64,000 nucleotides of DNA from assembly GCA_046542255.1 (NCBI GenBank), contig JBKHBT010000001.1, forward strand, positions 41,627-105,626. Direction: 5' to 3'. Numbering within the stretch: the stretch's first letter is position 1; every line of letters begins with the position of its first letter. The position numbers and the translations under genes were made by a program. This document shows positions 15,388 to 51,600 of the stretch, piece by piece. Origin of the DNA: Candidatus Zixiibacteriota bacterium. GTDB lineage: Bacteria; UBP14; UBA6098; JBKHBT01. The notes beneath the pieces were generated by a model. It did no database searches and was not told where the DNA came from. It saw only the letters and a program-made list of their open reading frames with translations.

Positions 15388-15867
15388 ATGAAATGGCTAA
15401 TTTTTACATTATTTTTTATCCTAAATATTGGAATGGCTCAGGCAGATGATATCAAACCGCCTCATGCGGACCCTGATGCTCCGATTGCCAATCATGATAG
15501 CCTGCTAAAAGTTAGAATTCCGCCGAAATATAATAATCCCGATATGGATGCTTCGATAAATCCAAAGATTATCGGAAAAGCACAAAAAGATAGGAATACA
15601 AATGCCACCAATCCAGTTAAAATGCTTGCAGATTTGCTTTTTCGACTTTATTCGAGGTTCATCACGCCGCAAGATGATCAGAAATGCCAATTCGAGCTAT
15701 CCTGTAGTGCCTATGCCAGGAAGGCTTTTAGATGCCAAAACCCTGTTAAGGCTGCGCTTATGACCTCTGATAGATTGCTTCGATGTAATCCTGTTGCATA
15801 TAAGTACTATGGAAAAAATCAAAATGAGCAATTAATCGATAATATTGATGGAGTCTGCAATGAATAG
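15388..15867 (+). CDS. YidD-like (DUF37) protein with N-terminal secreted extension
   Basis: 159 aa. C-terminal half LLFRLYSRFITPQDDQKCQFELSCSAYARKAFRCQNPVKAALMTSDRLLRCNPVA matches the YidD consensus (YQ..ISP….C.F.PSCS.Y…A…G…G..L…RLLRCHP). N-terminal ~90 aa is a signal peptide plus an extra region. Confidence 0.6.
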   Translation: MKWLIFTLFFILNIGMAQADDIKPPHADPDAPIANHDSLLKVRIPPKYNNPDMDASINPKIIGKAQKDRNTNATNPVKMLADLLFRLYSRFITPQDDQKCQFELSCSAYARKAFRCQNPVKAALMTSDRLLRCNPVAYKYYGKNQNEQLIDNIDGVCNE

Positions 15868-23472: not shown

Positions 23473-26400
23473 TTATCTTATCAAAGTTAGTGTACCTTTG
23501 CATACTCTTTCTCCATCGACTGTAATGATATAAAGATAAGTCCCGGATGGGAGATCTTTATCATTATCGGATTTGCCATCGAAAACCGATTTCTCGATTT
23601 CGCCAGCATCGACTTCGATCGTTCTTGCTTTTTGGCCACGCATATCAAAAATCTCTATCTTGCCTCCAAGGCTATATAAATTGGGGAATGAAAAATCTAT
23701 ATCATCATTGTAACCATCATCATTTGGCGTAAATGGATTGGTCGAAAGGCCGCAATCAAGATCCGGCTCGACCCAGAATTTCAGTGTATCGGTGCGCCAA
23801 TTTGGTGAACAGAAATCGGGGCTATCCTCGGCATATACTATGACTGTAAATGAGTCATAGCCCGAATAATCGAAACCACACGCATTAAAATTGATATCCC
23901 AGGTGCCAGAAGAATCGGTTGTTTCCTCGATACAATCCAGTGATGTTACTGTTGCGATTGTATCATAATATGCTGAAAGGATATATGCTGCAAAAGCATT
24001 GGTATTGACATCCGAGAAATAATCCATCGCGCCGAACTCTACATAAGGAGCATCATCGGGTATCATCTCTCCCGGCTCAGGATAGCTAAACCAAAGCTGT
24101 GGCGGAGAAAAATCGAATACAAGATGCCATGTTCTTTGGACAGCTTCATAACCATAGATATCTGATAGGCCATTCAAACGGACAAGCAAACTTCCCTGGT
24201 CGAATGGTTCCGAAGGTGAGAAAACGATGGTATCCGGGGATGTCAATTCTAGCCGATAATCAGAAAGCGTAAAAATCTCGCCATCGATTTCAATTTCGAT
24301 ACTGGATTCTTCAACTTGCTCTTCGCTATGGATAGAAAAAAACAATACATGATCTTCTTCGCTCTGACAGGCAATCACAGAGCCATTTGGCGGATGTATA
24401 AGCTCGATATCTGGCCTCGGCGCAATATTTACTTCATGAATCTCGGATAAAAGAAGGGTTCTATCATCGCGATTATCCAGATCGAAGTCATTATCATAGC
24501 AATGGAGTCTCCACGATACAATGATATCGCCATCTTGTGCTGGAATCGGTGCGCGCGATCGATATATTGAATCGCCATCGACGAAGTCATGGAATTCGAT
24601 ATAGATGCGATTGCTCGAAATATCCAGCTCACCATCGGTATCCCATTCGATATAGGCTGCCTGAGCATCCGAGAAATCTCCGGTAATAAAGATTCCAGAA
24701 CTATCTTCCAATGCAAATTCTATATAAAATGCGCTGTCCTGTACCCAATTAGATGGACTGGGTGAATGCATTATGGGCGGCAAAGTATCATCATCAGGAA
24801 TATAGAAATTTGTATTATAAAATGTATCATTTGCGCCACAGTATTCTGCACAATCGGCAATGTAAATGGTAAAATCGAAAGAATCATCCTCTGAATAGCT
24901 AAATGCTACATCCGATGGATCGAAATATACCGTATCGCCATTTATATCGAGATGTGAATTGTCGAGAGTATCGGAATCAATTGTGAAAATCATTGTCTCG
25001 AAATCAATACCACACATATCGTCATCAATTATAAACCAAACCGGCACATCAAATTGGCCGATAATTACAGAATCAGGCTCCGGAGACACCTCCAAAAGCT
25101 CAGGTGGTTCAATATCAATATAAAATTCTGTGAAAATTTCATCGGTATGTTCATTGCCGAGTGTATCGCTGATTTGCATAAGCGATGCTGTAATACTGTC
25201 GCCATGTCCAAATGGGGCAGTCGGCCTGAAAATCAGTGTATCGTCATTTAGCGATAGTTCACTCGCCGGCCAGGGAAATGTGGAATCATTGACATTGAAA
25301 ACCATCGACTCTAAATCGAGGCCATTGTCATCATAGAGCCATAAACGGATTTCTTGATTTTCGCATGAAGAATATGCTCCGCTATCTGGCAAAATGAAAT
25401 ATGCTTCCGGGCCGACCATATCGACTACGAAAAAGTATTCGAAAGTGGTTGAATTGGCTTCACAGAAATCCGGCGCATCGGCTATCTGGATTTCGATATA
25501 GGCTGTGTCTTCGAAGGAGAGGCCAGCGGCTGCAAAATCTATGTAAATAGTGTCTTCGGAATCAGAAAGCCACATGCCTGCTGGGCTATCGATATATCGC
25601 AACTCGGTATCATTAACATCGACAATAATACTCGATGGATCGATGCCAGCAATCTCATCGTAAATATAAATAGACATCACCGGGTCGCCAGCGGCCGTGC
25701 CACCGATTCTTGGGTATATTGGAAGCACATGAGGCGGCGATGTATCGACATAGAAACGGCCTTCTAATGTATCAGAAATAGGATTGCCAAGAGAATCCTC
25801 AGCGGCTGTAACCATCACATCGACAGTATCGCCATGCGACCATGCCGGCGAAGGCGTATAAATTAGCGTATCGCCAATATAGCTTGCAGATGGCGATGTG
25901 GTTGTAAAAAACTCTCCATCGATATAGAATTCTATGCTCGATTCAACAACGCCATTGACATCGCGAATGCTAAGATAAAGCGGGCCTTCATTGCATGATG
26001 TAACCGTCTCGTCCTCTGGCATAATAAAATTGGCAATAGGCCCGGATAGATTTATCGAGAAGCTCCAGCAAGTATCTCCTTCGTTCTCGCCACAATAGCC
26101 GGCAAGGTCCTGGAAATAGGTGCAAACCTCGACAGTATCGTAATCATCGAAATGAGGCACGACATCTTCACTAAGATAAAATCTTGTGCCATCCCAAATA
26201 GGATCATAAGAAACGCCATCTATCATGATGCTGACTGTGGATGTATCGAAGCCGGAAAGCTCATCATCCAGATTGAAATAGATATCAGTGATGCTATCGC
26301 CTATTACATAGCCGGCTTCGGGATATTCATCGACTAGATATGGTGGCGCAAAGTCCCTTGTTACGCTAAAAGCTTCGCTTTCCAGAGTATTGGCGACATT

Positions 26401-28554
26401 ATCCGAAACAGAAACATAAACCGTAATCTCATCACCATCATCCATGGAAATTGGCGGTTCGAATTCAAGGTTTCCATCTTCGAATGTCATATAATCTGGA
26501 TAGTCATACTCCGAGCCTTCGACAGTTATCGTGATAGAAGTCTCATCGACACCCATCAAATCGGAAATCTCGAAAATCATAGAAAGCTCGGGACATGAAG
26601 TATAGATTGTCGGCTCGATAAGCTCGACCTCTGGTGGTAAGGTGTCCACAAAGAAGCTCCAGCAGCGAGCATTGGAATTTCTGTCACAATATGCAGCATT
26701 GTCGATAGCAGTGATACAAACTTCGACAGAATCACCAGTATAGATACCTGCTTCATCACCGTCTATGCTGAGTGCGCCAGTAACTGGCTCAAATAGAATG
26801 CCGTCTTCGATAAGTATGCCATTGACAGTTATCAGAAAGCCAGTAGCATCGATTCCCGAAAGGTCATCAGCGATATTTGCATGGATATCGAAGCTGGGAT
26901 CGGCTATTAAAGTGTCTGGATTTGGTGATAAATCGGTTATCTCCGGCGGCAATAAATCGAAAATGATTTCGAAAGTATCCGGGTCATAAATACTGAAGCC
27001 TGCGGTATTTCGGACATTAGTCAATACTCCTGTAACAGTATCGCCATGTTCGAAGCAGCCTTCTTCGCCCTCGGGTTCAAAAAACAGCGTATCGCCGGAA
27101 ACTCTGAAACTGGTATAGTCGAAGCCGTGGCCTTCTATCATAGCATCCATAGTACCGGGTTCTATATCGATAGAATCAGGCATTTCGACAAGCCATGCCA
27201 CTCTTGCACATTCGCAGCTTGTAATCTCAGTAGGGTAGAGCAGTGTAACTTCGGGAGCCGGAACATCTGCTTCTATTAATATCCAATGGAAAATCGGCCT
27301 GCCAACGCCTCTGTCCATAAGGACACGATATTGGAAATATCGAAATTCCATATCCAGGTCTTCGCCTTCTTCCACATCGAACCAGTCTGTCCAATCTACA
27401 TCATCGAGGGATATGCGCGCCTGTACTGAAAGGCTTGCAAGCTCGGGTACGGTCTCCGACCAGGTTATTCTTTCAAGTGTGCCGATTCCTGGCAGTGATT
27501 TGACATCGGATTTATAATCCCCAACACCGACACCGCCATTATAGGCATAGTACATGGAATTGATCATGGCCTTGGCTTCCCATTCTATTGGCCGGAATGT
27601 CTCCGGAGAGCCCCTTAACTCTTCAGACTCATGGCCAGTGCTGAAAAATGAAAAGAAGGAATTGTGTTCCGGGTCATTATAAGTATGCATATATGGGATT
27701 CCTGCGTCATTGACATACCACAAATCGCCTCTATCGTGGACTTCGCCAAAATCGTGACACTCTGTAACATCGAACTCTTCGGGCAATACAAATGGTACAT
27801 TCATAACAATTGCATCACCATCTGCGCCGGGCGCCCTTTGCACATGCGTCCATGTTTCATCGGGTACGCAGCAATCTACCCATTCGGCTCTAAGGCCAGT
27901 AAGCTCTGTCATATTGTTAAAATTGGGATGTTCGAAATTATCACTGACTGAACAGCATAGCATTTCCCATGGCCATAAATCATAATGGTCCCTTCCCCAT
28001 CTTTTGGCAATAACATCATGGGTAAAAACAACTCCTTTTCCAAGACGAGCAAATTCTTCGACGGCATTTCTGGCTTCTTCGGAAATATCATTGCTCGAAC
28101 CACCATAACCATTAGCAATGCCGAAAAATATAATATGAAAAAAGGAAACTGGAAGGGTAACTGTGCCACCTGTATATGCGTTTTCGACAGTAAGCTCATC
28201 AGAAGCAGAAGAAATCGAATTGAAATCGTCAAACTCTATTAGGTAAATTCCGAATGTCAACCTGGGCGTGCCATCATCGGAATATTCATTGATAGGGTCA
28301 CTGAGACATTCGACACAATGGTCTTCTGGATAAATTTGAAGGACATAAATTGTATCGTTTTCAGTAAATATCAAAGCGCCATTATCCGGATCTGGTAATC
28401 CATCGGGATCCGGGCTTATGACATCGATATTTTCTGCATCGCCAGTGGAGAAATCAAAAACAGTAGTTTCATAAAATTCTATTGGATAAGCGATTATGCT
28501 TATCGTAAATACAAAAAGAATAAGTCCGATGCATAATTTGGCATACTTAGCCAT
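23473..28554 (-). CDS. Giant secreted cell-surface protein with T9SS type-B C-terminal sorting domain
   Basis: 1693 aa. Signal peptide. N-terminal alpha/beta region (HIIFFGIANGYGG…GKGVVFTHD). Many ~100-aa Ig-like modules. The last ~90 aa are FTPNDDGYNDDIDFSF…GKIEIFDMRGQ…GTYLYIITVDGERVCKGTLTLIR, the gliding-motility/CHU_C-type T9SS type-B CTD (FTPNGDGxND motif). Confidence 0.75.
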   Translation of the reverse strand: MAKYAKLCIGLILFVFTISIIAYPIEFYETTVFDFSTGDAENIDVISPDPDGLPDPDNGALIFTENDTIYVLQIYPEDHCVECLSDPINEYSDDGTPRLTFGIYLIEFDDFNSISSASDELTVENAYTGGTVTLPVSFFHIIFFGIANGYGGSSNDISEEARNAVEEFARLGKGVVFTHDVIAKRWGRDHYDLWPWEMLCCSVSDNFEHPNFNNMTELTGLRAEWVDCCVPDETWTHVQRAPGADGDAIVMNVPFVLPEEFDVTECHDFGEVHDRGDLWYVNDAGIPYMHTYNDPEHNSFFSFFSTGHESEELRGSPETFRPIEWEAKAMINSMYYAYNGGVGVGDYKSDVKSLPGIGTLERITWSETVPELASLSVQARISLDDVDWTDWFDVEEGEDLDMEFRYFQYRVLMDRGVGRPIFHWILIEADVPAPEVTLLYPTEITSCECARVAWLVEMPDSIDIEPGTMDAMIEGHGFDYTSFRVSGDTLFFEPEGEEGCFEHGDTVTGVLTNVRNTAGFSIYDPDTFEIIFDLLPPEITDLSPNPDTLIADPSFDIHANIADDLSGIDATGFLITVNGILIEDGILFEPVTGALSIDGDEAGIYTGDSVEVCITAIDNAAYCDRNSNARCWSFFVDTLPPEVELIEPTIYTSCPELSMIFEISDLMGVDETSITITVEGSEYDYPDYMTFEDGNLEFEPPISMDDGDEITVYVSVSDNVANTLESEAFSVTRDFAPPYLVDEYPEAGYVIGDSITDIYFNLDDELSGFDTSTVSIMIDGVSYDPIWDGTRFYLSEDVVPHFDDYDTVEVCTYFQDLAGYCGENEGDTCWSFSINLSGPIANFIMPEDETVTSCNEGPLYLSIRDVNGVVESSIEFYIDGEFFTTTSPSASYIGDTLIYTPSPAWSHGDTVDVMVTAAEDSLGNPISDTLEGRFYVDTSPPHVLPIYPRIGGTAAGDPVMSIYIYDEIAGIDPSSIIVDVNDTELRYIDSPAGMWLSDSEDTIYIDFAAAGLSFEDTAYIEIQIADAPDFCEANSTTFEYFFVVDMVGPEAYFILPDSGAYSSCENQEIRLWLYDDNGLDLESMVFNVNDSTFPWPASELSLNDDTLIFRPTAPFGHGDSITASLMQISDTLGNEHTDEIFTEFYIDIEPPELLEVSPEPDSVIIGQFDVPVWFIIDDDMCGIDFETMIFTIDSDTLDNSHLDINGDTVYFDPSDVAFSYSEDDSFDFTIYIADCAEYCGANDTFYNTNFYIPDDDTLPPIMHSPSPSNWVQDSAFYIEFALEDSSGIFITGDFSDAQAAYIEWDTDGELDISSNRIYIEFHDFVDGDSIYRSRAPIPAQDGDIIVSWRLHCYDNDFDLDNRDDRTLLLSEIHEVNIAPRPDIELIHPPNGSVIACQSEEDHVLFFSIHSEEQVEESSIEIEIDGEIFTLSDYRLELTSPDTIVFSPSEPFDQGSLLVRLNGLSDIYGYEAVQRTWHLVFDFSPPQLWFSYPEPGEMIPDDAPYVEFGAMDYFSDVNTNAFAAYILSAYYDTIATVTSLDCIEETTDSSGTWDINFNACGFDYSGYDSFTVIVYAEDSPDFCSPNWRTDTLKFWVEPDLDCGLSTNPFTPNDDGYNDDIDFSFPNLYSLGGKIEIFDMRGQKARTIEVDAGEIEKSVFDGKSDNDKDLPSGTYLYIITVDGERVCKGTLTLIR

Positions 28555-29267: not shown

Positions 29268-32200
29268 TCAGAAAATTGAAGTGCTATAGTTTACCCATAC
29301 GTTTTCTTCAGCCATAAGGCTTTTGGCTTCCTGGATTAGTTCTTTTTGAGTACAAATCTCTACTATACGTACTCGGGCTTTCTTGAAGTTATTTTTTGTT
29401 TGCACATGCAAAATGACAGGTATCTTGCCAGGATATTTTTTCAAGATTTCCAGAAGCTCCTCTTGTATCTCACGGTTGTGAATTTTTGTATCGATCCTGA
29501 TATGAAGCTGTTGGGCAAGCCTTTGGTGAATTCCCTGGAGAGACGCTATCTTTTCTATGGATATTTCGATACCGCCTCTTTGTTCGAGCTGGCCCTGCAT
29601 AATATAAAGCTCTCCGGATTGCACCTTCACTTTTTGCATCTTATATGCCCGTGGATAGAGCTTGAATGTGATGCTGCCTGTTTCATCCTCCAGAGTACCA
29701 TAGGACATTGGATGGCCTTTTTTGGTTTTTGTTACTCTGTAATCGGTAACCTGTCCGGCAATTGTTACTATTCTGCCATCGCCAACTTCTTCGAGAAGGT
29801 CGATTCGTATGGCCTGAATCATCTCGAGTATTTTTGTATAGCCTTCTAAAGGATGGCCGGATTGGAAAAATCCAAGAGCATTTTTTTCATTTTTGAGGTA
29901 TTCGGCCAGTTCCCATTCTGGTTTATCGGTAACATCGGGATATTCATCCTTTTTGTCCATAGCGCCGATATCGAAAAATGTAAGCTGCATATCGGATTTT
30001 TTAGCATTCTCCTGTGCAAATTTGATTGCTCTATCGGCATGGTTGGCCAGAGCAGCGCGGCTTAGGCCGAAATCATCCAGCGCACCCGCGTAGATAAGAT
30101 TCAAAAGCGAGCGAGAATTCAGGCCAAATTTTGCGCTCCGGTCGCAGAATTCATATAATCCGGGAAAATCCCCCTTTTCTTCGCGATCTTTGATAATCTG
30201 TTTTGCTGTCTCTTCACCAAGACTTTTAATTGCACCCAGTCCAAAACGTATTTTGCCTTTTTCGACAGAAAAGTCCCAAAAGCTATTATTTATCGAAGGC
30301 TTAAGGATTTCTATCCCAAGGCGTTTGATATCGTCGAGCAATATCTGAAGGCGATCGGCACGGCTGACAAAGCTGGTAAGGTTTGCTGCTGTAAATTCAA
30401 CTGGATAATAGCATTTTAGCCATGCTGTTTGATAGGCCAGTATCGCATAAGCAGCAGAATGGGATTTATTGAATCCATATTCGGCAAACTTATTTATAAA
30501 TTCGAAAAGCTTCTCGACAAATTTTTTCTTATAGCCCTTTTTGACAGCCCTTTCGATGAATACTTTTCTCTGGTCTTCCATGAGTTTTATCTTCTTTTTG
30601 CCCATAGCGCGACGAAGAATATCGGCCTCGCCAAGAGAGAAACCGCCGATTTTCTGTGCAATTCTCATCACCTGCTCCTGATAGATGATTATTCCCTGTG
30701 TGTCTTTCAGGATGGGTTCGAGGTCCTCATGAAGAAATTCCACATCTTCTTCGCCATGCTTACGGCTGATATAGAGTGGAATATTGCCCATCGGCCCAGG
30801 GCGGTATAGAGCATTCATAGCGATAAGGTCTTCTATCGAGTCGGGCTTTAGCTGCATGAGATAGCGAGTCATGCCGTCTGATTCGAATTGGAATAGCCCG
30901 GTTGTATTGCCATCGGCAAATATTTTGAATACCTTTTGGTCCTCCTGGTCGATGGCGCGTATATCGACATCCTCATCGGATGTATATTTGATCTGCTTTA
31001 TCGTATCATCGATGACAGTAAGAGTCCGAAGGCCCAAAAAGTCCATCTTGAGAAGGCCAAGCTCTTCCACATAGTCTTTATCGATCTGTGTTGCCACATC
31101 TTTTTTGGAAGTAACAAATAGCGGTACAAAATCGGTAGTCGGCCCGGGAGTGATAACCACTCCAGCAGCATGAATCGAAGTATGCCGCGGAAGGCCTTCG
31201 ATCCTTTTGGCAAAATCGAATAATTTGTGCATGTCATGCTTTTTGATGAATTCTTCCATCTCGGGATTCTCTTCATAGGCTTGTTGAAGCTTTGCATTTT
31301 CGGGTATGAGTTTGGCGAGCTTATTCATATCATCGAAGCTATAACCGAGCGCCCTGCCGACATCTTTCAATGCGGCGCGAGCCTTCATCTTTCCGAATGT
31401 AGCGATATGTGCGACCGATTCATCGCCATATTTCTCGCGGACATAGTCAATTACCAGTTCTCTTTTATTATCGGAGAAATCGATATCGAAATCCGGCATC
31501 GATTGCCTTTCGGGATTGAGAAATCTTTCGAATAGCAATTCATACTTCAAGGGGTCAAAGTCTGTAATTTCCATGCAATATGCCACCAGCGAACCGCCAC
31601 CGCTACCACGTCCCGGCCCAACTGAGATATTACGCTCGCGCGCTGCTTTGGTGAAATCGGCAACAATGGCAAAATAGCCGGGAAAGCCCATCTTTTCGAT
31701 GATATTAAGTTCATGCTCGAGCCTATCGAGATGCTTTTTCTCGACTTTTTTATATCTTTTATACAGTCCTTCTTTCGATTTTTCGCGAAGATATGTTTCC
31801 ACGTTACCGCCGCCAGGCACCGGAAATTCAGGAAAATGAAGTTTACCGAGTTCCATCTTGAAATCGATTTCATCGGCTATTTTTAAGGTGTTTTCGATTG
31901 CTTCTGGATAGTCTTTGAAAAGCTCGATCATCTCTTCTTGAGTCTTGAAATAGAATTCTTCATTCGCAAATTTGAGCCTATCTTTGTCTGATACCAGCTT
32001 CTTTGTGCCGACAGCCAGAAGCACATCATGATATTCTGCATCTTCGCGGTTTAGATAATGGCTGTCATTTGTAGCGACTATTCCGATCCCCATTTCTTTG
32101 GCGAGATTGGCCAGAGGCTCTATCGATTTGACTTCATCCTCGATGCCATGATTCATCAGCTCGATATAGAAATTTTCCCGGCCGAAAATATCCATATAAT

Positions 32201-32684
32201 CTCTGGCGGAATTTTTGGCTTCATCGATTCTATTGTATCTGATATGTTCATTCACCTCGCCCTTAAGACAGGCAGAAAGTGCAATAAGGCCTTCGGAATG
32301 TTCGCGCAGGGTCTTCTTATCCAATCGTGGTTTGAAATAGAAGCCCTCGGTATATGCGATACTCGAAAGCCAGATGAGATTTTCCCAGCCTTTCTGATTT
32401 TTCGCAAGAATCACCAGATGATTAAGATTTGGTGGCCGCCCATCGATATATGCTTTATGGTACATATCGCCGGGTGCGATATAGAATTCCTGGCCAATAA
32501 TCGGCTTTATGCCAGCCTTATCAGCAGTCTTGAAAAAATGAACCGCTCCGAAAAGATTGCCATGGTCGGTCATCGTAACGGCAGGCATATCAAGCTCTTT
32601 AGCGCGTTCGACCAATTCGTTGATACGACATGCGCCGTCCAAAAGGCTATATTCGGTGTGATTGTGAAGATGCACAAAATTCAT
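29268..32684 (-). CDS. dnaE: DNA polymerase III alpha subunit
   Basis: PHP domain start MNFVHLHNHTEYSLLDGA. Polymerase core, OB-fold and C-terminal region all present. Start set at the ATG at 32682-32684, not at the upstream in-frame extension in the ORF track. Confidence 0.93.
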   Translation of the reverse strand: MNFVHLHNHTEYSLLDGACRINELVERAKELDMPAVTMTDHGNLFGAVHFFKTADKAGIKPIIGQEFYIAPGDMYHKAYIDGRPPNLNHLVILAKNQKGWENLIWLSSIAYTEGFYFKPRLDKKTLREHSEGLIALSACLKGEVNEHIRYNRIDEAKNSARDYMDIFGRENFYIELMNHGIEDEVKSIEPLANLAKEMGIGIVATNDSHYLNREDAEYHDVLLAVGTKKLVSDKDRLKFANEEFYFKTQEEMIELFKDYPEAIENTLKIADEIDFKMELGKLHFPEFPVPGGGNVETYLREKSKEGLYKRYKKVEKKHLDRLEHELNIIEKMGFPGYFAIVADFTKAARERNISVGPGRGSGGGSLVAYCMEITDFDPLKYELLFERFLNPERQSMPDFDIDFSDNKRELVIDYVREKYGDESVAHIATFGKMKARAALKDVGRALGYSFDDMNKLAKLIPENAKLQQAYEENPEMEEFIKKHDMHKLFDFAKRIEGLPRHTSIHAAGVVITPGPTTDFVPLFVTSKKDVATQIDKDYVEELGLLKMDFLGLRTLTVIDDTIKQIKYTSDEDVDIRAIDQEDQKVFKIFADGNTTGLFQFESDGMTRYLMQLKPDSIEDLIAMNALYRPGPMGNIPLYISRKHGEEDVEFLHEDLEPILKDTQGIIIYQEQVMRIAQKIGGFSLGEADILRRAMGKKKIKLMEDQRKVFIERAVKKGYKKKFVEKLFEFINKFAEYGFNKSHSAAYAILAYQTAWLKCYYPVEFTAANLTSFVSRADRLQILLDDIKRLGIEILKPSINNSFWDFSVEKGKIRFGLGAIKSLGEETAKQIIKDREEKGDFPGLYEFCDRSAKFGLNSRSLLNLIYAGALDDFGLSRAALANHADRAIKFAQENAKKSDMQLTFFDIGAMDKKDEYPDVTDKPEWELAEYLKNEKNALGFFQSGHPLEGYTKILEMIQAIRIDLLEEVGDGRIVTIAGQVTDYRVTKTKKGHPMSYGTLEDETGSITFKLYPRAYKMQKVKVQSGELYIMQGQLEQRGGIEISIEKIASLQGIHQRLAQQLHIRIDTKIHNREIQEELLEILKKYPGKIPVILHVQTKNNFKKARVRIVEICTQKELIQEAKSLMAEENVWVNYSTSIF

Positions 32685-32730
32685 AGTGCACAATTTAATA
32701 TTTTTATCATTTTCAATCAAGCACTTTGAT

Positions 32731-32760
32731 AAAAAAAAGCCCTCTTCATCCGAAGAGGGC
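32731..32760 (-). terminator. Intrinsic terminator (minus strand) downstream of the Lrp/AsnC-like gene
   Basis: Perfect 9-bp GC-rich stem gccctcttc/gaagagggc (32739-32747 / 32752-32760) with a 4-nt loop. On the minus strand it is followed by an 8-nt U-tract (plus-strand A8 at 32731-32738). Confidence 0.6.
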
Positions 32761-32784
32761 AAAGGAGATAAAAAAGCGAATAGA

Positions 32785-33036
32785 TTATTGGCCGCTGTCA
32801 GAATTGAAGGCAAAGCAGGTGACAGTGCGAGTAACACCTTCTGTTTTTCTGATATTGTAAATATGGTCTTTCAAAAGCTCGATATTGTCATCCTCGACAT
32901 AACAAATAATGTCATGAAGACCTGTAACGACTCTCGAATGATAGACAAAGTCTTTCTGCATCAAATCATTGTGAACCATAAGCTCGGTTCCAGATTTAAC
33001 ATTGATCAAAAGGTATGCTCCGGGTTTCATATACAT
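32785..33036 (-). CDS. Stand-alone Lrp/AsnC-type ligand-binding (RAM) domain protein
   Basis: 83 aa. GAYLLINVKSGTELMVHNDLMQ…VVTGLHDIICYVEDDNIELLKDHIYNIRKTEGVTRTVT follows the beta-alpha-beta-beta-alpha-beta RAM-domain pattern of AsnC-family C-termini. There is no HTH. Confidence 0.55.
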   Translation of the reverse strand: MYMKPGAYLLINVKSGTELMVHNDLMQKDFVYHSRVVTGLHDIICYVEDDNIELLKDHIYNIRKTEGVTRTVTCFAFNSDSGQ

Positions 33037-33305
33037 CCTCCTTTGATTTGGTATTCCCCAGTTTGCTTTAATTTAATCATTCTCTAATAATAATGCACAT
33101 ACAATGGCTGAAAGTCAATAATTTTTTTAATTAGAGTTTCCAGCCGATTATTTTGAGTAGAATAGATTAAATATTGGAAAAACAGTAAGCTATTGATTTA
33201 GGAATATTGTTAGATTCACCTAAATGTTGCTCAAATAACAGACAATGTATGATCCCGCGCGGATTTAATTTAAACATCAATAAAAAGTGTTAAAAATTCT
33301 TATTG

Positions 33306-33428
33306 CTCTTTTAAAGCCATATATATATAACACATATATAATACTTAATACATATACTCAAAAGGCTTTACTGATGTTTTAGCCTGAAAAGTATGACAAT
33401 GCGGAACAGCGCATTGTCTGGATTAACC
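33306..33428. repeat. Copy A of a ~120-bp repeat element. It is inverted relative to copy B and contains the 9-bp-stem hairpin gacaatgcg-N6-cgcattgtc at 33395..33418
   Basis: The reverse complement of 33306-33428 aligns with 47921-48038 at about 90% identity. Differences are mainly indels in the (TA)n-rich tract. Confidence 0.8.
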
Positions 33429-33606
33429 TTTTATGGGCTCTACATTATCATTATCCCTTGCATAAGTTTTTGTGGTTTTTTCCTTTTCTATATATTCAGT
33501 GGAATTATATTAAATTCAATGTGAATGCCTTTAGAAGAAATTATGAAAGAAAACGATTGATTTTAGGTGATTTATAGCATATTTTACATCATTGTAAACT
33601 TATAGG

Positions 33607-34746
33607 ATGGGAAAAATGTGTCCAAGTTATGATGAGACAAGCGCAATAAGTAAGGTTCGGTATCTACAAAATACCAGTGCGGTCGAAGAACAATTAAATA
33701 AAAATTATGCCATTATCTATAATACCGCTGTCGATATAATGGATGTTGACAGCCTTGTTCTTTTTAAGTTTGACCGTAAAAAACAAGAGTTATATTCTGT
33801 AAAATACAAACTTGCCGGCCTCGAGTTTCGAATGAGCATCAATGAAGGCGTTACAGGATGGGTTTTCAGGACAGGAAAACCAGCGATTGTGAATAATCCT
33901 AAAGACGATCACCGATACTATCCACATTTCGATAGAAGATTTGAACTCGATACAAGAAATCTTCTTGCAGTCCCTATAAAGAATTCTTCTAATAAGCCAA
34001 TTGGTGTTTTGGTATTTGCTAATAAAAAAGGCGACTTTGACCAGGAAGACCTGGAATTGGCAGAGTCACTCGCTGGGCATATGAGTATTACTTTCGAGAA
34101 TGCAATTTTATACGAAGATCTAATTTTGACCTTCGAGAGCCTGGTCAATGTACTGGCATTTACTATCGATGAACGGCATAAGATTTCCAGTGGACATTCT
34201 CATAGGGTAGCCGAATATTCCGAGAAAATTGCTCAAAAAATCGGTCTAAATCAACATGAAACCGGCCTTATATGGCTTTCTGCTATGCTTCATGATTATG
34301 GCAAAATCAGCATACCCGACAAGGTACTTCGCAAAGAAGGCCAGCTCGATGAAAAAGAGATGGAACTTATGAAAAAACATGCAAAAAGTACTTATGATAT
34401 GCTTAATCGAGTTTATTTCAATGAACAAATGTCCAAGATTCCGGAGATCGCTGCCTATCATCACGAGCGAATAGATGGCAAGGGCTATCCATTTGGCCTT
34501 ATGGGAGATCAGATACCCCTTGGCGCTAAAATTATTGCTGTTGCAGATGTTTACGATGCTATGACAAGCTGGCGCGAATACCATGACCCATATTCCAGAG
34601 AAATTGCTGTAAAAGAGCTAATCGATGGCAAAGGGACTAAATTCGATGCCAAAGTTGTAGAAGCTTTCACCGATTTACTCGAAAGCGGCGAGCTGGACCA
34701 GATTGAAAAAAGAGCGACTAATTTTCATAAGGTTAATAATCTTTAA
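33607..34746 (+). CDS. GAF-domain HD-GYP phosphodiesterase (c-di-GMP signalling)
   Basis: 379 aa. N-terminal GAF-like domain. HD motif in LSAMLHDYGKISIP. HHERIDGKGYPFGL is the HD-GYP signature. Confidence 0.8.
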   Translation: MGKMCPSYDETSAISKVRYLQNTSAVEEQLNKNYAIIYNTAVDIMDVDSLVLFKFDRKKQELYSVKYKLAGLEFRMSINEGVTGWVFRTGKPAIVNNPKDDHRYYPHFDRRFELDTRNLLAVPIKNSSNKPIGVLVFANKKGDFDQEDLELAESLAGHMSITFENAILYEDLILTFESLVNVLAFTIDERHKISSGHSHRVAEYSEKIAQKIGLNQHETGLIWLSAMLHDYGKISIPDKVLRKEGQLDEKEMELMKKHAKSTYDMLNRVYFNEQMSKIPEIAAYHHERIDGKGYPFGLMGDQIPLGAKIIAVADVYDAMTSWREYHDPYSREIAVKELIDGKGTKFDAKVVEAFTDLLESGELDQIEKRATNFHKVNNL

Positions 34747-35885: not shown

Positions 35886-36782
35886 ATGAAACGATCGATT
35901 TTGAAAATATCGCTCGCACTAATTATAGTTTCAGCATTTTTCTTCACCGGCTGCGACACATGCGTAAATTGCAATGACCGATATGATGATTGCTGCGATG
36001 AAGACTATTATCCACCGCCTGTTCCCTATGATGTCTATACCACTACCTATGATGGCTTCATAGAGATCGATTGGCATCCGATCTATTCCAGCGATTTTGA
36101 TTATTATAGAGTTTGGCGCGGTTACTATGAAAGTGGAGAATACACACTCATAGGCGAAACATCCACTGCATTCTTCACAGATTATAATGTCAGAAATGGC
36201 CAGACTTACTATTATGCAATCAGCTCTGTCGATTATTGGGGCAATGAAAGCGAAATGTCATATGAAATCATCTACGACACGCCTAGGCCAGAAGGCCATA
36301 GATATACAATCTATAGCGGTGATTTGTATCCTGAGTCATCTGGTTTTGACTTCTCGGAGAGATATGTCGTACCCTGGGATGATGTAAACTGCGATGTATT
36401 CTTCAGCTATGATAGCGATATCGAAGAGTTCTATCTTCAGGCCGGAAACGATATGACAGATATTATGGACTATGGCTATACAAGTGATCTTCAGGATGTC
36501 GATTTTGCCCCGGAGACAGGATGGGACCCGGAAGGCTGGGAAATTGCACAGAGAGGCCATTCCTATATCATATGGACATCCGATAATCATTTCGCACATC
36601 TGCGAATAACCAGCATGTACGATGACAGGATCATATTCGACTGGGCCTATCAAACCGATACTGGCAATCCAGAGCTTTTCCACAGGACGGAGAAAGAATT
36701 GCCTGTTCGAGATATGATAACAGAAAGAACAATCGAAAGAAATAATAACTATTCAGAAAATATCACCATGGAGGAAAAATGA
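35886..36782 (+). CDS. Lipoprotein with fibronectin-III-like domain
   Basis: 298 aa. Signal plus FFFTGC lipobox. Cys-rich stretch (CDTCVNCNDRYDDCCDED). FN3-like YRVWRG…TAFFTDYNVRNGQTYYYAISSVDYWGNES. GGAGG RBS. Confidence 0.5.
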   Translation: MKRSILKISLALIIVSAFFFTGCDTCVNCNDRYDDCCDEDYYPPPVPYDVYTTTYDGFIEIDWHPIYSSDFDYYRVWRGYYESGEYTLIGETSTAFFTDYNVRNGQTYYYAISSVDYWGNESEMSYEIIYDTPRPEGHRYTIYSGDLYPESSGFDFSERYVVPWDDVNCDVFFSYDSDIEEFYLQAGNDMTDIMDYGYTSDLQDVDFAPETGWDPEGWEIAQRGHSYIIWTSDNHFAHLRITSMYDDRIIFDWAYQTDTGNPELFHRTEKELPVRDMITERTIERNNNYSENITMEEK

Positions 36783-38137
36783 GACGCGCAATATTAATCG
36801 CAATAATTGCAATAGCTGCAATAATCCCAATCACGGCGCAGGCCGATTATGCCCTGATATTCCATTACTCGACCGGATCACCTTATGTCCCTTACTATCC
36901 TTATGTTTACACCGACTACGAATACTACTGGGACTACTATGACCTTATCGTAATGGATGATTTTTGGGATCCATTCCCTTGGTTTACTCGCCACTGGGTA
37001 AGGACTTACTATAGCCCCTGCGGATGGTATCGTTATCACTATTATGATTATCCATGCCATGGCTGCACGAGAGTCTATGTCAATGGCCGTTATCGCTATC
37101 GCTATCCAGAACCACGGCGAACCAGATATGTCCATCGAAGCTCGAATTATCCTACAAGGAGTGAAATAGTCCGCGAAAGATATGTCGAAAGGACAAGAAG
37201 TACTGCTCCTACAAGAACAGTTACCAGAACAAGGACGACTTCATCGACCAGAACACCGGAAACCAGAACAAGGACAACACCTGCGACCAGAACTACAGAT
37301 TCAAGGCTCTACAGAGAAGGCGAATCATCCAGCAGAACAGAATCTTATCCCGAAAATTTAAGCACAAGAAACCGTACTGAATCGAGAGCACACTCGACAG
37401 AATCCACAAGGGATATCACCCCCGATCGTAATGATGAAGTAACTTCGAGAAGGCCAAGCGAAATTGGTTCCAGCCCGAAAACTGCCACCAGTTATTCATT
37501 AGATGATACCGAAGAGCGTTCAAGCAGCCCTCGAGGAACAAATATCGACAGTAAAACACGAGATATAGAATCTGTTTCTGAAAAACCAGAAAAGCCCACC
37601 AGCATTTCCAGAGAATCTTCGGCCGCTAATATCGATAATTCCAATAGAGCAAATGTCAAAGAAGAAAGCGAAACTTCTGATGGGGGCTGGGAAGAATACT
37701 ATCGTGGCAGGTCTTTCGAAAGAGAAGAGAAAAGAAGCTCAAGAACAATCGAAAAACCATCGACTTCGTCCAGAGCATCTTCGACGATATCAAGATCGCC
37801 AGCTCCAGAATCGAAATCATACACCCCTCCGTCTCCATCGAATTCTTCGCGAAGTATTTCCACTTCACCATCCAGCCGCTATGGCACAAAACCAATGAAA
37901 AGCTACGAAACCAAAGATGATGATGACGACAAAAAGAGCACGAAAAAATATATTGCTCCTTCAAAAAGCAAAAAGAAATCCACAAGTAGTAGCAGCTCAA
38001 AATATACACCAACATCCAGAAGCAAAACATCTGGGTCATCTTCCAATAGCTCCAGCAAATCGCCAGCTAGCAGAAGTACACGAGGTTCGAGCAGCAGTTC
38101 CAATTCCAGTTCATCACCCAGAACAAGGTCGAAATGA
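36779..38137 (+). CDS. Secreted intrinsically disordered protein: Tyr/Trp/Arg-rich N-domain, (T-R)n tract, Ser-rich tail
   Basis: 452 aa. Signal peptide. About 26 Tyr in the first ~118 mature residues (…PYVPYYPYVYTDYEYYWDYYDL…RYRYRYP…). Four Cys. Then RTRSTAPTRTVTRTRTTSSTRTPETRTRTTPATRTT. Then a long S/T/K/R-rich tail. Start overlaps the upstream gene stop (ATGA). Confidence 0.55.
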   Translation: MRRAILIAIIAIAAIIPITAQADYALIFHYSTGSPYVPYYPYVYTDYEYYWDYYDLIVMDDFWDPFPWFTRHWVRTYYSPCGWYRYHYYDYPCHGCTRVYVNGRYRYRYPEPRRTRYVHRSSNYPTRSEIVRERYVERTRSTAPTRTVTRTRTTSSTRTPETRTRTTPATRTTDSRLYREGESSSRTESYPENLSTRNRTESRAHSTESTRDITPDRNDEVTSRRPSEIGSSPKTATSYSLDDTEERSSSPRGTNIDSKTRDIESVSEKPEKPTSISRESSAANIDNSNRANVKEESETSDGGWEEYYRGRSFEREEKRSSRTIEKPSTSSRASSTISRSPAPESKSYTPPSPSNSSRSISTSPSSRYGTKPMKSYETKDDDDDKKSTKKYIAPSKSKKKSTSSSSSKYTPTSRSKTSGSSSNSSSKSPASRSTRGSSSSSNSSSSPRTRSK

Positions 38138-38292
38138 ATTCAAGAGAAATCGACATAATTGCAGAAGAAATTCTCCCATCAACGAATGCAGCTTCGCAGG
38201 CCACTGCGGAGCTGCAAAATTGCAAGCGAAAGGAGCCTCTCGAAAAATACTTGCAGCTAAAGATTTGTAATGATATATTCTAAGGAGATATT

Positions 38293-38808
38293 ATGAGTAC
38301 TAATAAAATAAACAGCTATTCGATAATCAAGATCCTAATACTTCTTTTTTTAGTATTAGCAGGAAGTATTTTTGCCGATGATGATGAGAACGATGACAAT
38401 AAATCATTTATCAAATGGCTTATGGAAGCATCGGATGAATCTTCATCCAGGAAAACAGCGAGAAGCAGCAATGGCGAATCCTATGACTATTTCCAGGATT
38501 CCAATGACAATGGTATCGATGACAGATTAGAGAAAGAACGCTCTAAAGATACCAATCCGACTAAACAGAGGAAGTCAATAATCAATTCAGAACCTTCAGG
38601 TAAGTCGATTGGTAAAGCAATTGAATCAGAAATTCGAAACTCATTAAGAGAAGACTCCCGGGAAGATGCTCCAGCACCTTCGATACGGAGAAAGGAAAGC
38701 CCCGGTTCTTCAAAAAACAGCAAAAGAACAATCAGCCCCTCCAAAACAAAAGATAAAAATTCCACATCGAATTCCGAAAACAAAAGCAAGAAAAAACGAA
38801 TAAAGTAA
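38293..38808 (+). CDS. Small secreted charged low-complexity protein
   Basis: 171 aa. Signal peptide. D/E/S/K-rich. GGAG RBS. No recognisable domain. Confidence 0.4.
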   Translation: MSTNKINSYSIIKILILLFLVLAGSIFADDDENDDNKSFIKWLMEASDESSSRKTARSSNGESYDYFQDSNDNGIDDRLEKERSKDTNPTKQRKSIINSEPSGKSIGKAIESEIRNSLREDSREDAPAPSIRRKESPGSSKNSKRTISPSKTKDKNSTSNSENKSKKKRIK

Positions 38809-48699: not shown

Positions 48700-51600
48700 A
48701 TGAATAAAAATACTGTTTTTGCGTTTTTGCTGTTTGTATTAATCTTATCTACAACCTTATTTTGGTTTGCATGCCAAAAAACTTCTAATCCCATTGGGGT
48801 TCAGGAAGATAAAAATTGGATTATTGATTCTCTTTATACCGTTCCATCGAGTTTTCCTTATCAGGGGATTGGGTATGTATATGCAGATGTAGTCGATGAA
48901 GAGACTGGCGAACCATGCGATGATCCATCGATTTATGTTACATTTTCCAGTCCCAATGATACCAGTATTTTTAGCAATTCCATTTCTTATGTCAATAGCG
49001 ATGGAATCGCTGCCTCTCGAGTCAGTCTGAGAAATATTACCGATACAACTGAAACCCTGGTTGTTATAGATGCGACTATTGAATATCCCAATACAGACTA
49101 TGAAAGTTATTATCTAAGCGTTGGTGACCAGGCAGCATCTAAAGCTGCTGATATCGAGCTGGAGGCAAGGCCGGATACCGTTTTTGCTGATTCGTATGAT
49201 ACCGTTATGGTCTCTTGCACAGTAATCGATTCATTTGGAAGCACGATTGAAAATGTCAGGGTTTACCTTGAAAGCGTAAGCCGAAATTTCACTATTCCAT
49301 CTGGCAATTATTATACCGATGAAACCGGAGTAGCGCATGTGCCGATTCCGGCGCCAACTGCGCCGGGTGAAGGCGTTCTTCGGGCTTATGTATATGGAGC
49401 CGCAGAAACTATCGTAGATGATACTGTTAGTTTCTGGTTCATTCCTGAGGCACCTGTTAGTAATATACAGCTTACTTCCGATGATATGCAGATTCCTGCC
49501 GATGGAATTTCTACTACAACGCTATCGGCAAGAGTAATGGTCGGTGAACCTTCTGCGCCTGCTCCCGATGGAACACCGGTTACATTCGAATCTGATAATG
49601 GTTCTTTCCAGGACTATGTTTTCGCAACAAGAAGAAATCCTAATCCATCCGAAGCAGAAGGCGATGGTATTCAGGAGAGCCAGTCGAGCTGGACTGCATA
49701 TACCGAAGACGGAGTAGCGAGAGTGATTTTGGTTAGTTCCACCGAAGCAGATTCTGTTACAATTACCGCAACCTCAGATCTTGTAACTGCAGAACATACG
49801 ATTTTATTTACACCGGGCGAACCTGCTATCATAGAGCTTGAATCCAATGAATCTTCTTTGATTGCAGATGCTTCGGATACAACTTCGCTAACAGCTACAG
49901 TGTATGACGAATATAGAAATACTGTCAATGCCGGGATCACGATTGAATTCGATGCCGATATTGGCTTTACTTCTCCTGCGGCCTCGAATACCAATGTTAA
50001 TGGTGTCGCGAGGTCTTTACTCAGAAGTGCTAATTCTTCGGGATTAGCTACAATCACAGCTTCATATGGTTCGATTGTAGATCAAGTCGAGGTCATCTAT
50101 CGTTCGACTACGCCACAAAGGCTGACAATGACTGTCGAACCGAATGAGCTACTCGCAGATGGCTCCGAAACGGCAACTGTCCGAGTCCAGGCTTTGGATG
50201 AAAACTATATCGCAGTTACCGATGGCGTTCCGATATCATTCGAGACTAATAAGGGAAGCTTCAGTCCTGCAGCATCTTACTTAGAGAGGCCTTTCGAGAA
50301 TGATGATAACGATGAGATAAATACCGATGGAATCGATGATGATGATTTGCGGATGTCGATTAGCGAAGCGATGCTGGAAGATGATTTTGTCGCGTTGACA
50401 GAAGGAGGCTTCGCAGAGGTTACTCTCAGGAGTGATACTATTGCTGGAGTCGCTGTCGTCAGAAGTTTCCACATGACAGGCGATAGTTACGATGCAATAG
50501 ATACTGCCAGAGTTCCTTTCTATCCAGGGCCACCACAAAGAGTTGAAGTGTCTTTCTACCATGATACGATAACTGCCAATGGAGCAGACACAACTACTGT
50601 TTATGCAACAGTTTACGATGAATATAATAATAGCATCGGTAGTGGCTATACAGTTGATTTCTCTACAGTAGAAGGTTCTGTTTTCCCGACTTCGCAGACC
50701 ACAGGCTCCGATGGTATTGCAAGAACCAAACTGACATCCAGCCTTAATTCTGGAATGCACTATATTACAGCTACGGCTTCCGGGATAACAGCCAATACAA
50801 ATATCTATTTTGAAGCATCCCGGCCAGCAGAAATAACGCTTAGAGCCGATGCCTATACTATGCCGGCAGATGGTATATCAGAGAATATTCTTACAGCCTA
50901 TCTTTACGATGCTGCCGGAAGGCCTGTCTCCAACGGGACCAGAGTGGAATTTGCCTGTTCTTTGGGTGAATTCAGCCTTTCTTCTTTGTATCGTAGAGGA
51001 ATTAGCGAAGAAGAGCCGGGCGATGGAAGAAAAATCGGCCATGGTTTGCGTAGCTTCTCTACAATGGATTCAGAAGAGATTTATTATGCTTATACCGAAG
51101 ATGGCCAGGTTTCTGCCAGCCTCATCAGCCCAACTTCAGAAAGTACTGATACTTCTATTTATGCCAAAGTTGTAACCGATTCGATTATACCACCGGCTGA
51201 CACGCTTGTTTTAGCAGATACTATATCGATTTCTTACATATCCGGTGATATTTCAAGAATTGGAGTTGTTGCAGCACCGACAAGTATTACTAATGATAGC
51301 TCCGAAATTACCGCGACTTTATATGATGAGCATGATAATCCAATGGGCGAAGGAATACTCGTTGAGTTTTCCACTACAATGGGTTCTGTTAATTCGCCAA
51401 TAGTAACCGATACATTGGGCCAGGCAAAAACATACCTATTCCCGGGTTCCGAGACAGGTACAGCTACGGTTACCGCAAGAGCTGGCGAGGTTTCAGGTTT
51501 TGTTAATGTAAATATTAGGCCGGTGAATGTCGGTGAAATTTACCTTTCTCTCTCATCATCAGAAATGACAGTAGATGGCGAGACAATCGACCTCGAAGCC

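Follow-up and report, generated by a model that had tools for sequence, protein, structure and literature searches.

A Tyrosine- and Arginine-Rich Exported Protein of an Orphan Family in Candidatus Zixiibacteriota, Encoded next to an Acidic Lipoprotein, Is a Possible Envelope Scaffold

Introduction

What might a bacterium gain from exporting a protein whose N-terminal domain is more than one-fifth tyrosine and whose long tail consists largely of serine, threonine, arginine, and lysine? This question is raised by an open reading frame (ORF) at positions 36779..38137 (+) of a 64,000-nucleotide stretch of DNA (the window) from a Candidatus Zixiibacteriota metagenome-assembled genome (MAG). The ORF encodes a protein of 452 residues, here called the target, and is the middle gene (gene 2) of a cassette of three genes. 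Our comparisons indicate that the target is the product of a genuine gene, that it is exported by the Sec pathway, and that it belongs to a small, undescribed orphan family in Zixibacteria/UBP14-like uncultured bacteria. As to its role, we tentatively suggest that the target is a non-enzymatic scaffold of the cell envelope, in which a β-sheet core would dock onto a partner and a cationic tail would bind polyanions.

Composition and expression signals

Residues 1 to 22 of the target (MRRAILIAIIAIAAIIPITAQA; 36779..36844, +) have the n/h/c layout of a signal peptide of the signal peptidase I (SPase-I) type, with an AxA cleavage site (…ITAQA↓DY) and no cysteine, and an equivalent N terminus is found in all family members. 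The 118 residues that follow (residues 23 to 140) contain 26 Tyr (22.0%), 5 Trp, and 16 Arg, a Tyr density that is unmatched by any other ORF of the window and highly improbable at the 4.27% Tyr of the window's 38 long ORFs (binomial P = 4.9e-12). A (Thr-Arg)n tract comes next (RTRSTAPTRTVTRTRTTSSTRTPETRTRTTPATRTT, residues 138 to 173; 37190..37297, +), and a Ser/Thr/Arg/Lys tail, presumed to be disordered, then runs to the end of the gene (37298..38137, +, including the stop codon). Ser makes up 29% of residues 191 to 452, Thr and Arg 10% each, and Lys 9%, and the net charge of the mature protein is +21. A GGAGGA Shine-Dalgarno sequence precedes the start codon, which overlaps (ATGA) the stop codon of the upstream lipoprotein gene.

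These counts bear out most of a sequence-only reading of the window, which had described a secreted, Tyr-rich, low-complexity product of this ORF with about 26 Tyr in 118 residues and several Trp after the signal peptide, a (Thr-Arg)n tract, and about 250 residues dominated by S/T/K/R, translationally coupled to an upstream gene for an FN3 lipoprotein and followed by a gene for another secreted, charged, low-complexity protein. Only its count of 4 Cys in the N-domain has to be corrected, to 3 (C81, C93, and C96). Its view that the composition is extreme and not that of a standard domain also stands, as neither the target nor 23 family members match a Pfam or NCBIfam entry.

Tandem Repeats Finder (TRF) found no relevant DNA repeats behind the low complexity, and all six Ser codons are in use in the target, which together place the bias at the protein level. 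We accordingly reject DNA-level repeats or slippage as its source. A second Tyr-enriched protein, of 298 residues, is encoded in the window at 15848-16744 (+). Its most Tyr-dense stretch of 118 residues includes 18 Tyr, a hydrophobic segment is found at its N terminus, and membrane-like segments lie toward its C terminus; it has no Pfam match and is unrelated to the cassette by BLAST.

Conservation and selection

An identical target protein is encoded on an independent assembly (L001), and P0001 (locus L002), which is 41% identical overall and 67% identical across the N-domain, is encoded in the same gene order on another contig. When the target is compared with its two closest relatives (L002 and L022), synonymous sites are saturated (proportion of synonymous differences [pS], 0.64-0.91), while the proportion of nonsynonymous differences (pN) is 0.18-0.25 in the conserved core, where pS exceeds 0.8, 0.25-0.32 in the Tyr-rich segment before the core (dN/dS ~0.14), and 0.54-0.58 in the tail. 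The low pN against a saturated pS indicates strong purifying selection on the N-domain; the tail retains only its reading frame, its composition, and its C terminus. Alternative frames across the gene contain short ORFs only. The sequence-only reading had named a lack of conservation, with a better alternative frame, as what would speak against the ORF, and what we find instead is conservation at 18 loci and purifying selection on the N-domain.

An orphan family with one architecture

An exhaustive phmmer search of 1.84 billion representative proteins with residues 1 to 140 of the target gave 10 matches, a profile search of a 5.8-billion-protein collection gave 4 further members, and scanning GTDB species genomes with a sequence pattern yielded 13 loci; the loci with a family member number 18 in all. 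The target scores 153.8 bits against the family profile (E = 3.7e-47) and has all of the family-defining elements, and searches of Pfam, NCBIfam, the PDB, and predicted folds returned no match for the family. All members are in uncultured MAGs from sediments, seeps, and vents, one of them UBP14_UBA6098 and others from Guaymas, Auka, and cold-seep sediments. The family thus appears to be new, if new is taken narrowly to mean without a known match; we do not claim the mechanism itself as new.

Members are 209 to 467 residues long and share one architecture throughout: a signal peptide, an acidic aromatic/Cys segment, the core, and an S/T/R/K tail ending in R-x-[KR]. The pre-core segment is acidic across the family (30-60 residues, of which 35-56% are Tyr, Cys, Trp, or Phe and almost none are basic). 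In the target, it is Tyr-rich (…PYVPYYPYVYTDYEYYWDYYDL…, residues 23 to 64; 36845..36970, +), and in this form it is conserved inside the window's own clade, which has 0-1 Cys and 8-11 Tyr here versus 6-12 Cys in the others. Most relatives have Cys/Trp/Asp-rich runs (CxC, CCCC) instead of Tyr, and their first 170 residues can contain as many as 17 Cys. A single base separates the codons for Tyr (TAY) from those for Cys (TGY).

The Tyr-richest segment is not the conserved element of the family. The conserved part is a ~55-residue Tyr/Arg β-meander, the core (PFPWFTRHWVRTYYSPCGWYRYHYYDYPCHGCTRVYVNGRYRYRYPEPRRTRYVHR, residues 65 to 120; 36971..37138, +), with the consensus W-P-x-x-x-R-R-W-V-x-x-Y-Y-S-P-C-G-W-Y-R-Y-x-Y-Y-D-Y-P-C-x-G-C-x-R-V-Y-V-x-G-R-Y-R-Y-R…L-x-x-R-Y. 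Residues R71, S79, G82, Y84, Y86, Y88, R108, Y117, and R132 are invariant, C81 is the only nearly invariant Cys, and the core CxxC has been lost in several clades (P0001, P0003, P0004, P0008, and P0009). Invariant R132 lies in a short predicted helix after the core (TRSEIVRERYVERT, residues ~126 to 139; 37154..37195, +), which is the counterpart of an RRRGLE motif in relatives.

Beyond this helix, little of the sequence is conserved. The (Thr-Arg)n tract is lineage-specific and is missing from L002 and L022, close as they are to the target, and the tail evolves fast, with its composition and positive charge kept (net +11 to +27 for family tails). An SDGGWEEYYRGRSF island in the tail (residues 300 to 313; 37676..37717, +) is present in two copies in P0001/L002 and in none in L022. 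At the very C terminus (R-S-K in the target; 38126..38134, +), Arg at position -3 is invariant, and K/R is the last residue, or second-to-last before a terminal Leu/Ile, in all members.

The AlphaFold model of the target, built with 15 sequences in the alignment, is confident for the core alone (predicted local distance difference test score [pLDDT] of 78-91 for residues ~68 to 120, against a mean of 57.6 overall), and the first 43 mature residues, those of the pre-core segment, have a pLDDT below 50. The prediction for the core is a β-meander of four strands (75-78, 84-89, 97-101, and 104-112), along which Tyr alternates with Arg/His (YRYHYY; RYRYRY), giving one Tyr-rich face and one Arg-rich face.

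The cassette and its variants

A homolog of gene 1 lies directly upstream in 18/18 family loci, at 46-64% identity and thus better conserved than the target, with an ATGA overlap between the two genes in 7 of the 18, and a counterpart of gene 3 (~130-180 residues with a signal peptide) lies directly downstream in 17/18. The genes that flank the trio vary from locus to locus (MgsA, FeS_assembly_P, and EF-Tu/SecE, with others that we take by eye to be RsmE-like and GT2-like), and the neighborhoods are of the housekeeping kind rather than islands. Since these outer neighbors vary and are housekeeping genes, the trio would seem to be a functional unit. No paralogs of cassette genes were found elsewhere in the window, the three cassette products are all exported and lack a recognizable enzymatic domain, and we found no published description of the cassette in the literature.

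Gene 1 (35886..36782, +) encodes a 298-residue lipoprotein with a lipobox (FTGC) and Asp at +2; it is 100% identical to the NCBI entry ACLFSQ_00320, labeled "hypothetical protein." The lipidated Cys is followed by a linker rich in Cys, Asp, and Tyr (CDTCVNCNDRYDDCCDEDYY, residues 23 to 42; 35954-36013), an FN3 domain (residues ~45 to 130), a second β-sandwich (residues ~133 to 260), and a C-terminal tail of low confidence. The FN3 domain, already proposed by the sequence-only reading, is not recognized by Pfam; it is present in the AlphaFold model. In two fold searches bearing on the identity of the second sandwich, FN3 matches dominate, and the best whole-chain match, a DUF4466 lipoprotein (TM score, 0.41), is uninformative. 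The protein is strongly acidic, with 58 D+E versus 19 K+R and a net charge of -39 over the full precursor. Its C-terminal 255 residues carry -36, within the range of -18 to -36 (mean, -27) for the loci with a target family member (type A loci), across which the net charge of gene 2 is +3 to +26 (mean, +15). Asp at +2 and an abundance of Cys (2-5 extra), Asp/Glu, and Tyr/Trp mark the 20-30 residues after the lipidated Cys in these type A loci. Such a linker is confined to cassettes with the target family, and sister cassettes have a short, plain one. The gene 1 family itself is larger: 415 proteins had an E of ≤0.001 among 605 candidates scored, a metagenome scan gave at least 223 confirmed relatives among the 600 pattern matches listed, and the NCBI labels of relatives include Zixibacteria, WOR-3, and KSB1.

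Gene 3 (38293..38808, +; ACLFSQ_00330, "hypothetical protein") encodes a 171-residue protein with a signal peptide, of low complexity and with an acidic N-terminal and a basic C-terminal end, as the sequence-only reading had noted in outline. Its conserved motif (YDYFQDSNDNGIDDRLE, residues 64 to 80; 38482..38532, +) is a candidate Ca2+ loop of the DxDxDG, EF-hand, or TSP3-like kind. At each of 38 loci, a single protein, the product of the last cassette gene, contains the pattern [FYW]-x-[DENQ]-x-[DN]-x-[DN]-[GN]-[IVL]-[DENG]-D, with x-x-E after it in most. The motif (D-x-[DN]-x-[DN]-G-[IV]-[DN]-D-x-x-E) resembles the loops of EF-hands, thrombospondin type 3 repeats, and dockerins in its acidic or amide residues at the potential ligand positions 1, 3, 5, 9, and 12 and its Gly at position 6; unlike them, it stands alone within a disordered protein, and its hydrophobic residue is at position 7 rather than 8. 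Pfam gave no EF-hand or TSP_3 match in gene 3. A 49-residue ORF lies between the target gene and gene 3 (38134-38283, +), with an ATGA overlap with the target stop codon. It is called by the Logan gene caller and apparently not by NCBI, since the tags _00320 and _00330 leave room for one gene between them.

A survey of the genes downstream of gene 1 homologs at 102 loci revealed several versions of the cassette. In type A, gene 2 belongs to the target family. In type B (WOR-3-like), the signal peptide of gene 2 precedes a still more aromatic Tyr/Trp domain (in 170 residues, 14-19 Trp and as many as 45 Tyr), which leads into a charged helical region and then a charged tail; the next gene encodes a DUF4384+PEGA protein, and the one after it encodes the motif protein. 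In type C, gene 2 encodes DUF4384, a weak PEGA domain, and a basic tail and precedes the gene for the motif protein, and type D consists of a DUF4783 protein and a ~1,275-residue protein, without a motif protein. The survey therefore points to the lipoprotein and the motif protein as the constant parts and to the middle gene as the variable one; its product is always secreted and, in types A to C, aromatic-rich, basic-tailed, or both.

Type B gene 2 proteins (for example, L016 5794-6975 and L020 5785-6726) are close to the target in design, with a signal peptide, an acidic Tyr/Trp(/Cys) segment, an aromatic core ending in an R-P-R-Y-G…V-R-Y motif, a charged disordered tail, and the same lipoprotein and motif-protein neighbors. 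They differ from it in being Trp-dominated, in having an extra helical charged domain, and in having a separate DUF4384+PEGA gene alongside. Homology between their aromatic domain and the target core is not demonstrable (no match by hidden Markov model [HMM]; hhalign P = 0.013, probability of 3%), and the link between the two is one of synteny only. The type B proteins are even more extreme in composition than the target (for example, in L016, L020, and L052 5335-6447); …YVWWYPWWWDWYWARCYWCHRFHWDFFY… has 30 Tyr and 15 Trp in 170 residues, and the L052 protein has 45 Tyr in 170. They have no Pfam or NCBIfam match.

Other loci extend this range. The protein at the gene 2 position in L028 (1694-3643; 649 residues) consists of FecR and DUF6600 (Trp/Gly/Pro-rich) domains with a long Ser/Lys/Arg tail and is another solution that combines an aromatic domain with a basic tail. 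In L075 (3304-3726) and L099, gene 2 encodes a Tyr/Arg/His/Cys-rich lipoprotein of 140-144 residues (…GPRYRYHHPRYCYDCHHHP…RVYVY…) after the FN3 lipoprotein, followed by a ~450-residue protein and then the DxNxNG motif protein, and this arrangement may be a fifth variant of the cassette. The type D loci (L060, L036, L043, L054, and others) have distant lipoprotein homologs (35-43% identity), followed by the DUF4783 (NTF2-like) protein and the ~1,275-residue protein, which is secreted; they are probably a paralogous system.

A possible envelope scaffold and its rivals

What, then, might the target do? We tentatively propose that it is a non-enzymatic structural partner of the gene 1 lipoprotein in the periplasm or cell envelope. 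The core would dock onto the lipoprotein, or self-associate, via its Tyr face, because a lone four-stranded sheet cannot bury an all-Tyr face by itself; the partner in burial could be the lipoprotein, a second copy of the target, or its own pre-core segment, and the pre-core may also pair with the similarly composed Cys/Asp/Tyr linker of the lipoprotein. The Arg face and the cationic disordered tail would bind polyanions, such as the acidic lipoprotein, peptidoglycan, or the phosphates of membranes and lipopolysaccharide (LPS), and this would yield a multivalent layer or tether driven by charge, on which Ca2+ might act by way of gene 3. What points to the lipoprotein as the partner is the combination of opposite charges, a matching linker, and strict synteny with frequent coupling, and the charge complementarity between genes 1 and 2 is kept across type A loci.

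A periplasmic or envelope location is our default expectation for the target and would be favored over extracellular adhesion. Pfam and NCBIfam scans gave no outer membrane export signal in the target (type IX secretion system [T9SS] C-terminal domain, autotransporter, or lipobox), though the genome encodes T9SS parts and cargo, which makes periplasmic retention the default. In particular, the target has no lipobox ([LVI][ASTG][GA]C); no T9SS sorting domain (TIGR04183 or PF18962, CHU_C), with the same libraries detecting such domains in other window proteins; and no PEP-CTERM signal, there being no PEP motif, no hydrophobic helix (C terminus, …SSSPRTRSK), and no NCBIfam match. A check that the sequence-only reading had suggested, for Bacteroidetes-type O-glycosylation motifs, D(S/T)(A/I/L/V/M/T), gave 0 in the target versus 1.7 expected from shuffles, which speaks against a Bacteroidota-type O-glycoprotein if Zixibacteria use this sequon.

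Several points weigh against the scaffold proposal. The case for docking on the lipoprotein consists of synteny, charge, and co-varying composition; the core model derives from the 15-sequence alignment and has the low mean pLDDT given above; and the tail, whose sequence is almost unconstrained, may be a passive spacer. The localization of gene 1 is ambiguous as well, since Asp at +2 means retention in the inner membrane by the E. coli rule, and acidic residues after Cys+1 are a surface-export signal in Bacteroidota. Moreover, the Cys-rich relatives hint at a metal chemistry for which a scaffold makes no provision.

The same acidic residues after Cys+1 of the lipoprotein lend some weight to a different proposal, which we consider unlikely, that the target is an extracellular adhesive or matrix protein whose Tyr/Arg domain and cationic tail glue cells to minerals, polysaccharides, extracellular DNA, or each other, possibly through coacervate-like Tyr-Arg interactions. 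This proposal is near to the sequence-only reading, which had pointed to adhesion, coacervation, and nucleic acid or polysaccharide binding by such segments in other systems. The extreme Tyr/Arg composition would suit such a role, as would the T9SS parts and giant adhesins encoded in the genome, the origin of the MAGs in sediments, seeps, and vents, and the family-wide placement of tail aromatics beside R/K (60/100 versus 36 expected). However, this adjacency is not enriched in the window protein (5/12 versus 4.1 expected), and the spacing of tail aromatics is no more even than chance (z = -0.39 for the window protein; family mean z = 0.03). The target also lacks any signal for export across the outer membrane and has no adhesin-type repeats, and its cassette sits among housekeeping genes. 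A sticker-spacer patterning of the tail aromatics is unsupported both for the window protein and for the family mean.

Less probable still is that the target is a metal-binding or mineral-handling module, in which Cys/Asp/aromatic segments would bind metals and gene 3 would bind Ca2+, in the service of detoxification, storage, or mineral nucleation in metal- and sulfide-rich habitats. Most relatives have metallothionein-like CxC/CCCC runs, with the 17-Cys maximum in the first 170 residues noted above, and a core CxxC; the lipoprotein linker contributes 2-5 extra Cys plus Asp, gene 3 has its DxDxDG-like loop, hydrothermal or cold-seep sediments are where several of the MAGs originate, and in the window, as in L002 and L022, the cassette is succeeded by a FeS_assembly_P gene. 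Against this, the Cys residues are not conserved: the window clade has Tyr instead, with 0-1 pre-core Cys, several clades have lost the core CxxC, and we found no conserved set of Cys ligands, whether metallothionein-like or a CxxC metal site. The FeS_assembly_P neighbor is confined to the closest relatives, and no metal-binding family is matched in Pfam or NCBIfam.

The cassette variants themselves might suggest another origin, namely, that the target is a degenerate PEGA (or DUF4384-PEGA) envelope protein whose core is a decayed PEGA motif from the sister-cassette proteins. Type C gene 2, with its DUF4384, weak PEGA, and basic tail, has the same position, type B has a DUF4384+PEGA protein, and by eye the core segment YPCxGCxRVYVDG resembles VYIDYPFGAEVYFDG (YYDYPCxGCxRVYVDG versus the PEGA motif). 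An hhalign comparison of the core with PEGA aligned exactly these segments (P = 0.017), with a probability of 2.7% and with low power, as the positive control (type C versus gene 3) failed. However, none of 23 family members matched PEGA (PF08308) at an E of ≤10, and when family sequences were scored with a PEGA profile derived from the type B and C proteins, the real ones fared no better than their shuffled versions. No transthyretin-like fold neighbor was found for the core. PEGA homology of the core is rejected on the hhalign probability of ~3%, the lack of a Pfam match, and a profile at the shuffled level, and descent from a decayed PEGA protein appears to be largely refuted and is very improbable. 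DUF4384 (PF14326) likewise has no match in the target and the 23 members, with the sister-cassette positive controls at E values of 1e-20 to 1e-23. Thus, the DUF4384/PEGA envelope proteins of WOR-3-, KSB1-, and Zixibacteria-type MAGs resemble the target in being secreted, in their cassette position, adjoining a homologous FN3 lipoprotein and upstream of the same DxNxNG motif protein, and, in type C, in their long basic disordered tail, but they have no detectable sequence or fold relationship to it and have two β-sandwich domains where the target has its ~55-residue Tyr/Arg β-meander.

That the ORF is no gene at all, but a chance or decaying low-complexity ORF or a wrong frame, as its extreme low-complexity composition and the "hypothetical protein" labels of its cassette neighbors might suggest, is already refuted by conservation, given a full-length ORF of the same architecture at 18 loci from different MAGs, purifying selection on the N-domain, a conserved signal peptide, core motif, and C-terminal R-x-K/R, a Shine-Dalgarno sequence with ATGA coupling, and only short ORFs in other frames.

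Comparison with known structural proteins

A precedent for a periplasmic layer built from a lipoprotein is LipL32 of Leptospira, an abundant β-sandwich lipoprotein that forms a structural periplasmic layer and sets envelope stiffness (PMC13547282). The analogy is functional only: the proteins are not homologous, LipL32 has no aromatic or disordered protein to partner it, and the cassette described here is known from its genes alone.

Tyr-rich, basic, Ser-rich structural proteins of cell walls and coats, such as plant extensins and the Bacillus spore coat proteins CotG and CotC, build extracytoplasmic matrices through electrostatic and Tyr-mediated contacts. The target is likewise basic, Ser-rich, of low complexity, and secreted and has Y-x-Y motifs, but it has no homology to these proteins, no Pro/Hyp repeats, and no tandem repeats. 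The sources of the MAGs in sediments, seeps, and vents suggest that the host bacteria are anaerobes, and oxidative cross-linking of Tyr would be doubtful in that case. Phase-separating Tyr/Arg regions of the FUS type offer another comparison. The target resembles them in its Tyr/Arg enrichment with Ser/Thr-rich spacers, and an oppositely charged partner is encoded next to it; it differs in that its tail aromatics are not evenly patterned, most of its Tyr lie in a folded or semi-folded N-domain, and its setting is extracytoplasmic and bacterial.

We further speculate, with less confidence than we have in a scaffold role for the target, that the cassette could be an unrecognized, widespread envelope-building system of candidate phyla of the Fibrobacteres-Chlorobi-Bacteroidetes (FCB) superphylum (Zixibacteria, UBP14, WOR-3, and KSB1). 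Tyr/Arg contacts and electrostatics would join its oppositely charged partners into a gel or layer, periplasmic or pericellular, or into a matrix that nucleates minerals, and the middle gene would be freely swapped among unrelated aromatic-rich solutions (Tyr, Cys/Trp, Trp/Tyr, and DUF4384-PEGA). We know of no cultured, genetically tractable representatives of Zixibacteria, WOR-3, KSB1, or UBP14, and their envelopes are therefore known only from gene content. An enzyme-free cassette that is conserved across candidate phyla, and in which a strongly negative lipoprotein is matched with an aromatic-rich partner of strong positive charge, deserves attention in this setting. If the target is a scaffold, the cassette would be a lineage-specific answer to the question of how diderm bacteria organize or stiffen the space between their membranes, and it would also be a rare bacterial case of selection that preserves composition (aromatic, charged, and disordered) rather than sequence. 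Tyr gives way to Cys/Trp from one clade to another, and the middle gene is replaced entirely from one phylum to another, which amounts to a natural experiment on which physicochemical features matter. Three uncurated families, those of the gene 1 lipoprotein, the target core, and the DxNxNG motif protein, are candidates for entry in domain databases.

Other features of the window

The gene for MgsA/RarA lies within a few kilobases of the cassette in the window (39219-40571) and in L015 (1511-2848), L016 (9217-10425), and L022 (9308-10606), a neighborhood that is loosely conserved across Zixibacteria-, UBP14-, and WOR-3-type loci. In the window, it is directly followed by tandem serpin genes (40568-41755 and 41766-43007, +), the first of which overlaps it by 4 nucleotides, and in L022 a serpin gene directly follows MgsA as well.

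A protein of 1,693 residues encoded at 23473-28554 (-) has bacterial Ig-like domains and a C-terminal CHU_C type B T9SS sorting domain, so that the organism has T9SS cargo; its gene adjoins that for DnaE, the DNA polymerase III alpha subunit (29268-32837, -). Downstream of the cassette, a PorZ-like protein (44588-46855, +) has a T9SS type A sorting domain and scores well below the PorZ equivalog cutoff. The gene overlapping it (46852-47826, +) belongs to the FemAB family and is weakly like the XrtA/PEP-CTERM-associated FemAB, below the cutoff. An ORF of more than 5,100 residues with a signal peptide starts at 48700 and runs off the end of the window (48700-64000, +); with at least 7 Ig-like repeats of the Big_1/Invasin_D3 kind in its first 1,500 residues (E = 2e-79), its product is an invasin/intimin-like giant adhesin. 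The GC content dips to 0.287 at 48001-49000, before and across the start of this ORF, and to 0.321 at 33001-34000, a segment that comprises intergenic DNA and the start of a GAF-HD (HD_5) gene (33607-34746).

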